Assembly: GCA_044222185.1 (NCBI GenBank)
Contig: JBGANV010000001.1
Location: 544,001-608,000, forward strand
DNA length: 64,000 nt
Reading direction: 5' to 3'
DNA from: Planctomycetota bacterium
Lineage (GTDB): Bacteria > Planctomycetota > GCA-002687715 > CAIWVZ01
Shown: piece after piece, positions 25,739 to 27,977 of the stretch
How positions within the stretch are numbered: position 1 is the first letter of the stretch
How the letters are laid out: each line of letters opens with the position of its first letter
Translations under genes and position numbers: made by a program
Notes under the pieces: model-generated
Told to the model about the DNA's origin: nothing
The model's database searches: none
Seen by the model: the letters and a program-made list of their open reading frames with translations, nothing else

Positions 25739-25930
25739 GGAGGACCTCCTCTCCGCAGCCCGAAACAGAAGAATCGGTGGCCCCTCGACGCCAGACGAGG
25801 GCCACCGCTTACAGGAAAACTCTTCGGGTTTCTTCCTCCGTGGCGATAAGCCCATCCTTTCGAGAAAAGAGACGCGTTCTTCGCGGCTCGAAGCCACGCT
25901 CAGTTGCATGTTCAGTGCGCGGGGTGTGTT

Positions 25931-27097
25931 GTGAGCGCCGCCGTCGTCATCGTGGGAGCCGGTTCAGGGACGAGGCTCGGAGGCTCCGTGAGGAAGGCGC
26001 TCGTCGCATTCGACGGTGAGACACTCGTCGAGCGGTCGGCGCGTGCCTTCGCGGATGTCGGCGGGATCAGCGATCGGGTCGTCGTACTTCACGCGGACGA
26101 CCTGGCGGCGTGTGAGGACAGCGGGCTGTCGGCACGGCTGCGCCGCCTGGGCGTACGCGCGATCGTTGCTGGCGGCGCGACGCGGCAGGATTCAGCGCTG
26201 TCGGGCGTTCGGGCGACCGATCCCACGGTGCGTGACGTGCTCGTGCACGATGCGGCGCGCGCGTTCGTCAAACGGGAGCGCATCGCGGATCTGCTCCGTG
26301 CGCTCGATTCCTGCGACGCCGCGCTCCTCGCCACGCCGATGGCCGCGACGGTCAAGCGTGTCGACTCGAAACGTCACGTCGTCGAAACGGTTCCTCGTTC
26401 GGATCTTTGGCAGGCGACGACGCCGCAGGGGGGGCGCCGGGCACTCATGATGAAGCTCCTGGAGGACGCGGCGAGTTCCGGCCGGGCGGTCACCGACGAG
26501 GCATCCCTGTTCGAGGCTGCAGGAATCGCGCCACGGGTCGTGGAGGACGACGGCACGAATCTGAAGATCACCTGGCCCGCGGACCTGGCGCTCGCGCGCG
26601 GCCTCGTTCCTCCGCCGCTTCCGCGCGTCGGGCACGGGTACGACATCCATCGGCTCGTCGAGGGACGCAAGCTCGTCCTCGGCGGCGTCGAGATTCCATC
26701 GCCGCTCGGACTCCTCGGACACAGCGATGCGGACGTTCTCCTGCATGCCGTCATCGAGGCCATGCTCGGTGCGGCGGGACTGCCCGACATCGGCGAGCAT
26801 TTCCCGGACACGGACCCACGGTTCAAAGGCATCGCGTCGACCGAGCTGCTGCGGGTGACCATCGACGAGCTTCGTGCGCGAGGGTTGCGCGTTGCGCAGG
26901 TCGACTGCTCGATCGTCGCCGAACGACCCAAGCTCATGCCGCACAAGGCGCGCATCCGCGAGTCGCTGCAGACGCTCCTCGCGTTGCCCGCGGACCGCGT
27001 CGCGGTGAAGGCGCGCACGAACGAGGGGCTCGATGCCATCGGGCGGGGAGAGGCCATGGCGACGCACTGCGTCGCCGTCGTCGTGCCCGTCGCCTGA
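25931..27097 (+). CDS. ispDF: Bifunctional IspD/IspF
   Basis: GAGSGTRLG..K, HDAAR, TPQ, NLKIT; then GHGYDIH, GHSDADV, DIGEHFP. Confidence 0.95.
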   Translation: MSAAVVIVGAGSGTRLGGSVRKALVAFDGETLVERSARAFADVGGISDRVVVLHADDLAACEDSGLSARLRRLGVRAIVAGGATRQDSALSGVRATDPTVRDVLVHDAARAFVKRERIADLLRALDSCDAALLATPMAATVKRVDSKRHVVETVPRSDLWQATTPQGGRRALMMKLLEDAASSGRAVTDEASLFEAAGIAPRVVEDDGTNLKITWPADLALARGLVPPPLPRVGHGYDIHRLVEGRKLVLGGVEIPSPLGLLGHSDADVLLHAVIEAMLGAAGLPDIGEHFPDTDPRFKGIASTELLRVTIDELRARGLRVAQVDCSIVAERPKLMPHKARIRESLQTLLALPADRVAVKARTNEGLDAIGRGEAMATHCVAVVVPVA

Positions 27098-27100
27098 AAG

Positions 27101-27337
27101 TCAGCCCGTTCTTGCAGACCGCGTTTTCAGTATCGACGTGACCTCGCCCGGTTGGGGAAACCGGCCGGTTGCCTTCTTGGAGTAGATCAATTCGTCTCCG
27201 AGGCGCACCTCGAAGATGCCGCCCGTGCCCTTGATCATGGTGGCCTGGACGCGGAATTCCGCTGCGAGTTCAGCCGCCAGACTGGCGGCGTAGGGGTAGT
27301 AGTTTCACTGCGTGCAGTAGGTGATCGAGATCTTCAT
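27101..27337 (-). CDS. SelT/SelW/SelH (Rdx) family selenoprotein, 78 aa, Sec at codon 11
   Basis: Manual translation MKISITYCTQ-TGA-NYYPYAASLAAELAAEFRVQATMIKGTGGIFEVRLGDELIYSKKATGRFPQPGEVTSILKTRSARTG; GAGG RBS; frame open on both sides of the TGA. Confidence 0.9.
27273..27289 (-). promoter_or_regulatory. Candidate bacterial SECIS hairpin
   Basis: GCCGCCA-GTC-TGGCGGC, starting 15 nt 3' of the in-frame UGA, G first in the loop. Confidence 0.7.
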
Positions 27338-27444
27338 CGGTCCTCGCTTTCGTGGGGCGACTGTACGTACGGAGCGGGTGCCCCAAAGTCAGCCTCGACC
27401 CGAGACGCACCGACGCCACGTCTCGTCTTCTGCCTCGGGCCTCC

Positions 27445-27472
27445 TTGACTCGCCGCCGCCGTTCTGGAAAAT
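27445..27472 (+). promoter_or_regulatory. Possible sigma70-like promoter for tRNA-Gly(CCC)
   Basis: TTGACT-N16-GAAAAT, 12 nt before the tRNA. Confidence 0.45.
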
Positions 27473-27484
27473 GAGCGCCGCTCT

Positions 27485-27559
<75 letters not shown>

Positions 27560-27593
27560 CGCGCAGGTCTTCGATGCTTCGGAGGCCTGCGCG
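27560..27593 (+). terminator. Hairpin after tRNA-Gly(CCC)
   Basis: CGCGCAGGTCTTCGA-TGCT-TCGGAGGCCTGCGCG followed by GTTT. Confidence 0.55.
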
Positions 27594-27977
27594 GTTTCGT
27601 CTGAGTGCCGCGCATTCGCGGCCGGGCGGTCGAGGTTGAGCTCCCGCCTGGAATTCCGGCACTCTCTCGTTCGCGGCCGCTCGCACCGCGAAGCGGCAGC
27701 ACGGACCCGTTGACCATCGGAACGCGACGTTCGGGCCGGATGGGACGCAGTGAGTGGATCTCCATCGCCGAGAGATGGGGCGCGTCCGCGCCCGCGGCAT
27801 CGTCGGTCGGGCGCGCGGCTGCCACCTCGCCGGGACTGCGAGCCGCGAACGGGGGAAGGTCATGGCGACCCGGCCGCGGTCGTTCACCGACGAGAACGGC
27901 GGTCGTGCGAACCCGCTCCACACGCCGTCGCGAATGTCCGTGGGGCGGGGAACTCGGGCGGCACCGTGGTCGCCGTG

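Follow-up and report, generated by a model that had tools for sequence, protein, structure and literature searches.

A SelW-like (Rdx-family) selenoprotein gene, its in-frame UGA very probably decoded as selenocysteine, between ispDF and tRNA-Gly in a Planctomycetota genome

The window, a stretch of 64,000 nucleotides from a Planctomycetota bacterium (assembly GCA_044222185.1, contig JBGANV010000001.1, positions 544,001 to 608,000 of the forward strand), harbored a short minus-strand gene between a bifunctional ispDF gene and a tRNA-Gly gene. The ispDF gene (25904-27097, plus strand; Pfam YgbB, 204.9 bits, and IspD, 178.2 bits) was convergent with the short gene, and the tRNA-Gly(CCC) gene (27485-27558, plus strand; 74 bits), which displayed its own promoter-like site and a terminator-like hairpin, was divergent from it. 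The minus-strand frame (27337..27101) encompassed 78 codons followed by a TGA stop (27103-27101). It opened with an ATG (27337-27335), and a Shine-Dalgarno-like GAGGA (27345-27341, minus strand) was located 3 nt 5' of this start codon; GGAGG-like motifs were found upstream of the start in several relatives too. The frame read MKISITYCTQ, then an in-frame TGA at codon 11 (27307-27305), then NYYPYAASLAAELAAEFRVQATMIKGTGGIFEVRLGDELIYSKKATGRFPQPGEVTSILKTRSARTG up to the second, closing TGA. Read through with selenocysteine (Sec, U) at codon 11, the product would be 78 amino acids long, with Cys8 (TGC, 27316-27314) as the first residue of a CxxU redox motif. The original prediction had placed a frame of 78 codons, preceded by a ribosome-binding site, on the minus strand of the gap between ispDF and tRNA-Gly, and had read in it the motifs I.YCTQ-TGA-NY, GGIFEV, LIYSK and GRFP; the two flanking genes, the frame and the GAGGA were confirmed, and all of the motifs were present in the 78-residue product.

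It had also been anticipated that standard gene callers would drop or truncate the gene, which was indeed the case. For this frame, the list of open reading frames (translation table 11) held only a 45-residue tail starting at Met34 (MIKGTGGIFEV..., 27238-27101, minus strand), a truncated form of the gene. The sole entry for the gene in a large protein database was P0002, a C-terminal fragment of the same 45 residues and 100% identical to it, and the full-length form of this copy was absent from the database searched. The SelW-like gene was thus mis-called.

Only 3 nt (27098-27100) separated the stop codons of ispDF and of the selenoprotein gene, which makes an overlap of the two transcripts unavoidable. 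The 3' end of ispDF contained a 19-nt palindrome, GGCGACGCA-G-UGCGUCGCC (27076-27058, minus strand), 25-45 nt beyond the selenoprotein stop, and a weak match to the Rfam family STnc250 (21.8 bits, E 0.081) aligned to it. This palindrome could be a terminator hairpin lacking a U-tract for one or both transcripts. A promoter scan covering one promoter type returned no sigma-70-like site for the minus-strand gene. In the metatranscriptome run X14, the only exact contig (0 differences) spanned 26849-27099, corresponding to the end of ispDF, and none of its contigs covered the selenoprotein gene, an outcome that speaks neither for nor against transcription of that gene.

As judged from sequence profiles and from a predicted structure, the read-through product is an Rdx-family protein with a thioredoxin-like fold. 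Comparison with the Rdx and SelT/SelW/SelH profiles, proposed beforehand as a check, gave scores above the cut-off in all three cases: Pfam Rdx PF10262 (72.9 bits vs a cut-off of 22.6, residues 2-71 matching profile positions 1-73 of 74), NCBIfam TIGR02174 'SelT/SelW/SelH family protein' (CXXU_selWTH; 60.4 vs 34.2 bits) and the NCBIfam equivalog NF041051 SelTWH_Campy (89.9 vs 88 bits), the last being a marginal pass whose equivalog label was not relied on. Among proteins of solved structure, sequence matches included two Rdx proteins of bacterial origin, 3dex (E 7.9e-13) and 2fa8 (E 1.4e-9), in both of which the second Cys of YCTQC stood opposite U11; mammalian MIEN1 (2ljk) was matched at E 4.7e-4. 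The Rdx family itself was reportedly defined by Dikiy et al. in 2007.

An AlphaFold2 model of the read-through protein, built on 18 natural sequences, reached a pLDDT of 92.5 and displayed the order b1-a1-b2-b3-b4-a2, with a strand at residues 3-8, a helix at 14-28, three more strands and a C-terminal helix. The C8-T-Q-U11 motif was positioned between strand 1 and helix 1. The top Foldseek matches to the model were all Rdx proteins (2fa8, TMq 0.86; 3dex, 0.85; 2ojl, 0.86; 2oka, 0.86), followed by mouse SelW (2npb, TMq 0.61), and thioredoxins matched weakly (TMq about 0.37-0.5).

The in-frame TGA was conserved among relatives at two scales of sampling. When 41 related genomes, that of the window among them, were searched in six frames, matches were recovered in 17 of them, at 18 places. 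TGA occupied the CxxU position in 17 of these 18 places, and Cys in the remaining one (L033, from a genome of the same phylum, with YCTQC). In all 17 Sec forms from related genomes, the start codon was found exactly 10 codons 5' of the TGA, and the total frame length ranged from 72 to 87 codons. A wider scan, with one genome per species, yielded 162 relatives, and the best 80 of these 162 were analyzed: 69 carried TGA at the same codon and 11 carried Cys. Two Sec forms with a spurious upstream CxxC (L046 and L053) were counted as Sec here and left out of the alignment A3 described below. The record titles of the Sec forms encompassed Acidobacteriota, Planctomycetota, KSB1, Gemmatimonadota, Alpha- and Gammaproteobacteria, Obscuribacterales, Chloroflexota, Bacillota and others, and the best named-genome relatives from the wider scan were at most 59% identical to this copy. 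Cys8 was invariant in alignment A2, and across relatives the frame 3' of the TGA was open and conserved to a normal stop. The alignment of the TGA with the second Cys of homologues, on which the original prediction had been made to depend, was observed in 3dex, 2fa8, L033 and the 11 Cys forms of the wider sample.

Most of the Cys forms belonged to a distinct, longer subfamily (YCTQCRWLLRAAW...; YC[TR]QCRWLLRAAW..., with an N-terminal extension), the same one as the solved structures. Cys-containing Rdx homologues were listed at L033, L048, L052, L055, L058, L068, L071, L074, L075, L080 (with the motif CRQC) and L085, and L072 was a short-form Cys variant (FCEPCGY...).

These counts bear on the possibility that the gene is a pseudogene, or that the TGA is a sequencing or assembly error, in which case an ancestral TGC or TGT Cys codon reads TGA and the Rdx gene is dead or mis-assembled. 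TGA is indeed a single base away from TGC and TGT, and Cys forms exist in both samples, but the same codon was TGA in nearly all related places and in most of the best 80 relatives, under many phylum labels, and the downstream frame has been kept open. The same TGA (27305-27307) was also unchanged in contigs from three other studies, which spanned 27174-27530 with 0 differences (X3), 26905-27394 with 3 differences (X4) and 27131-27530 with 1 difference (X7). Within the gene, differences were found at positions 27137 and 27152 only, both synonymous (ACG to ACU, Thr67, and CAA to CAG, Gln62, respectively). The run that held the region best, possibly the source of the assembly, was left out of this contig comparison. 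Together with the covarying hairpin 3' of the TGA and the complete Sec machinery of the genome, both presented below, these observations make a dead or mis-assembled gene very unlikely. One further contig each in X3 and X7 joined across 78 nt inside the gene (27222 to 27301 and 27234 to 27313), with a shorter side of 24-25 letters at 90% likeness; these two were set aside as probably diverged relatives and not a deletion form.

A hairpin followed the UGA, as had been predicted from a 7-bp stem with a G-first loop starting 15 nt after the TGA. It was recovered as GCCGCCA-GUC-UGGCGGC (27289-27273, minus strand), with a 5' arm GCCGCCA (27289-27283), a 3-nt loop GUC whose first base is G (27282-27280) and a 3' arm UGGCGGC (27279-27273). 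It began exactly 15 nt 3' of the TGA, inside codons 17-22 (A-A-S-L-A-A), and was present in the minimum-free-energy fold. Its folding energy alone was unremarkable in a surrounding DNA of 64-70% GC (z = -1.76, with 11 of 200 shuffles folding at least as well), so that energy was not used as evidence and the case rests on comparisons. An Rfam scan of 26900-27600, with E values up to 10, returned no SECIS family, only the tRNA-Gly and chance-level matches; the hairpin was therefore classed as a SECIS on the strength of its position, conservation and context, outside any Rfam family.

The position of the hairpin is conserved and its stem covaries, including at synonymous Ala wobble sites. Alignments of 45 nt from the TGA onward, without gaps, placed the helix at identical columns in every aligned Sec form despite differing stems (e.g., GCCGCCA/UGGCGGC, GCGGCCA/UGGCCGC, GCCGUCA/UGACGG, GCUCUCA/UGAGAGC and GCCCUCC/GAGGG). 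In alignment A1 (17 sequences from related genomes), 89.0% of the cells were paired vs 19.9-53.7% when the 3' arm was slid by 1-3 columns, and in alignment A3 (the own sequence and 67 others, 59 distinct rows) 80.6% were paired vs 28.3-47.7% when slid, percentages somewhat favored by construction because the helix was defined from the same sequences. The A1 pair at columns 21-33, which joins the third positions of two Ala codons, was GC in 9 sequences, CG in 6 and GU in 2, and unpaired in none; these changes are synonymous, and the protein therefore cannot explain them. In A3, 5 of the 7 pairs had changed on both sides, with 74 such cells vs 22.6 in shuffles and a covariation score reached by 0 of 500 shuffles, such cells counting sequences and not independent events, as many rows are kin (e.g., near-identical alphaproteobacterial rows). 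The first loop base was G in 52 of 67 sequences of the wide set. Among 12 Cys forms, 33 of 84 cells (39.3%) were paired at the same columns, this control consisting mostly of the longer subfamily and thus not being like-for-like. As no Rfam model catches the hairpin, annotation of the SelW-like family could profit from a covariance model based on such an alignment.

The genome (7.08 Mb in 16 contigs, 93.79% complete) encoded the full Sec machinery, whose absence would have spoken against the original prediction that this lineage uses Sec. A tRNA-Sec was detected by RF01852 (74.7 bits vs a gathering score of 47) and by ARAGORN (tRNA-SeC, anticodon tca, i.e., UCA), and selA (TIGR00474, 487.3 bits), selB (TIGR00475, 330.4 bits) and a Sec-containing selD (TIGR00476, 370.6 bits) were all over their cut-offs. 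The selA gene (C1:1631186-1632544) was followed after about 80 nt by tRNA-Sec (C1:1632625-1632718) on the same strand. The selB gene (C1:529551-531440) was located on the contig of the window, about 14 kb before the first base of the window.

Other genes of this genome carried in-frame TGA codons. The selD gene (G000:C14:427704-428624, plus strand) contained a single one, in ...LSPGGGUACKIGP..., and the GGGUACK position is presumably the usual Sec/Cys site of SelD; by its sequence, SelD seems to be a selenoprotein too. A molybdopterin-oxidoreductase ORF related to the formate dehydrogenase alpha subunit (L118; G000:C6:198655-199224, minus strand) displayed an in-frame TGA in SCNRTUHAPSVAG, and its score against TIGR01553 (FdhA family) was 80.3 bits, far below the cut-off of 814.2. 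From this motif, the formate-dehydrogenase-like ORF is likely a third selenoprotein. Another weak match in its vicinity (C6:194519-194701) likewise contained a single TGA.

The product might alternatively be only the 45-residue ORF from Met34 (27238..27101), the upstream 10 codons being untranslated or encoding a short leader peptide. This short form is the one present in the ORF list and in the protein database. The Rdx profile match, however, needs residues 2-71, and residues 1-33, including the invariant C8, U11 and helix 1, were conserved across relatives. Met34 was not conserved, most rows of A2 having L, I or F instead, and by the predicted model such a fragment would lose the redox motif together with strand 1 and helix 1 on either side of it. 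A 45-residue product is thus highly improbable. Hardly credible at all is a read-through of the UGA other than as Sec, by near-cognate insertion of Trp or Cys or by a reassigned UGA: Cys insertion at Sec codons under selenium limitation is possible in some systems, but TGA is a stop codon in this genome, for this gene and several orthologues as well, the genome possesses a dedicated tRNA-Sec(UCA) along with selA, selB and selD, and other genes with an in-frame TGA have it at known Sec positions (SelD GGGUACK and the formate-dehydrogenase-like CNRTUHAPS).

Four independent lines, namely family and fold, Sec machinery, UGA conservation and hairpin conservation, support the reading of 27337..27101 (minus strand) as a functional gene for a 78-residue SelW-like (Rdx) selenoprotein, in which UGA codon 11 is almost certainly decoded as Sec. 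The proposal that this TGA is read as selenocysteine was thus well supported by the conserved UGA and hairpin and by the machinery, Sec insertion itself being what we infer from them. By analogy with the established bacterial mechanism, SelA would make Sec-tRNA(Sec) with selenophosphate provided by SelD, and SelB with Sec-tRNA(Sec) would bind the hairpin 15 nt 3' of the UGA and insert Sec at codon 11. The second UGA (27103-27101), which has no such hairpin, would act as a stop. Cys8-x-x-Sec11, at the start of helix 1, would most likely cycle between a selenol/thiol and a selenenylsulfide form, and by analogy with the family the product probably acts as a selenenylsulfide-forming thiol/selenol oxidoreductase.

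Gene neighborhoods were compared across 98 loci. The recurrent neighbors were the ispDF homologue described below (6 loci), an HtrA/DegP-like protease (8 loci) and, in 7 loci each, MgsA-like AAA+ ATPases and a luciferase-like monooxygenase. The HtrA/DegP-type proteases (Trypsin_2 and PDZ domains) were found at L027:1991-3205 (minus strand), L028, L094, L097, L098, L108:2515-4128 (plus strand), L110 and L113, two of these loci coming from the window's own family and six from alphaproteobacterial metagenome-assembled genomes close to one another. The largest neighbor cluster (32 loci) was discarded as spurious, since nearly all of its ORFs lie antisense to the selenoprotein gene and overlap it. 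No general operon partner or neighbor was obtained across the 98 loci, and therefore no function was inferred from the neighborhood.

An ispDF homologue was the convergent immediate neighbor in 6 of the 18 places of related genomes, own included (L020, L021, L024, L025, L027 and L028). These six loci were close relatives, from two families of one order, and the Pfam check concerned the copy of the window only. The adjacency of ispDF and the SelW-like gene is probably inherited synteny. A functional tie of the SelW-like selenoprotein to isoprenoid synthesis (MEP pathway) in this bacterial order, one possibility being a role as redox partner for the reductive steps of the pathway, is very unlikely; its one basis is the ispDF homologue that is convergent and almost abutting in these six places.

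As a selenoprotein gene, this one is unexceptional: its bacterial family has been known for some two decades and has NCBIfam models of its own, and both the family and its mis-annotation are well documented (PMC1088965, PMC1794560, PMC13326102). Its main value is one of annotation, and it changes nothing in the knowledge of Sec decoding or of the Rdx family. An uncultured, GC-rich bacterium of roughly 7 Mb would thereby be added to those decoding UGA as selenocysteine, its selenoproteins including at least the SelW-like protein and SelD, and probably a formate-dehydrogenase-like enzyme. According to a 2026 study, bacterial annotation systematically truncates or overlooks selenoprotein genes (PMC13326102), of which the present gene would be one more case. 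In a 2025 account, bSECISearch is presented as the standard SECIS-based tool, with its limits set out (PMC12013277). Alignments A1 and A3 further display a hairpin at a fixed offset as a feature that SelW-like genes with many phylum-level labels have in common.

The SelW-like family was already listed among known selenoprotein families in 2005, in a paper that ranks it first in abundance among the selenoprotein families of the Sargasso Sea data (48 genes, with CXXU), shows a bacterial SECIS for it, suggests a redox role for the CXXU motif and calls its function unclear (PMC1088965). A 2006 paper records SelW-like selenoproteins in Geobacter sulfurreducens, Desulfotalea psychrophila, Symbiobacterium thermophilum and other organisms, and attributes few Cys homologues to the family in Sec-using organisms (PMC1794560).

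Compared with mammalian proteins, the protein shares with mouse SelW (2npb) and MIEN1 (2ljk) the Rdx family, the thioredoxin-like fold and a CxxU or CxxC at the same place, but the identity is only about 22-24%. Eukaryotic SelW genes carry their SECIS in the 3' UTR, as stated in the Figure 7 legend of PMC1088965, whereas here it is located inside the coding sequence. The SECIS of the E. coli fdhF type is likewise a coding-sequence stem-loop that follows the UGA closely and is capped by a small apical loop with a G, but its stem sequence is unrelated to that of the present hairpin, the stem being family-specific. A stem-loop within the coding sequence, with a small G-containing apical loop, is a common bacterial SECIS feature in the description given in PMC1088965. 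The proteins SAV_2001 (3dex) and Atu0228 (2fa8) have the same fold (TMq 0.85-0.86, rmsd 1.1-1.3 A) and the same position of the YCTQ-C/U motif, but they carry Cys instead of Sec and belong to the longer subfamily (constructs of about 105 residues, with CRW/CNW LLRA... after the motif), and Cys forms of this type are without the hairpin at the DNA level, as seen in the low pairing given above for that control. The closest likeness was found with the bacterial SelW-like selenoproteins, which fall in the same length class (about 75-80 residues) and share the N-terminal CxxU, GG[IV]F[EV]V and GRFP motifs; in them, too, the UGA precedes a small hairpin whose loop contains G, and the present copy displays no difference of kind from them.
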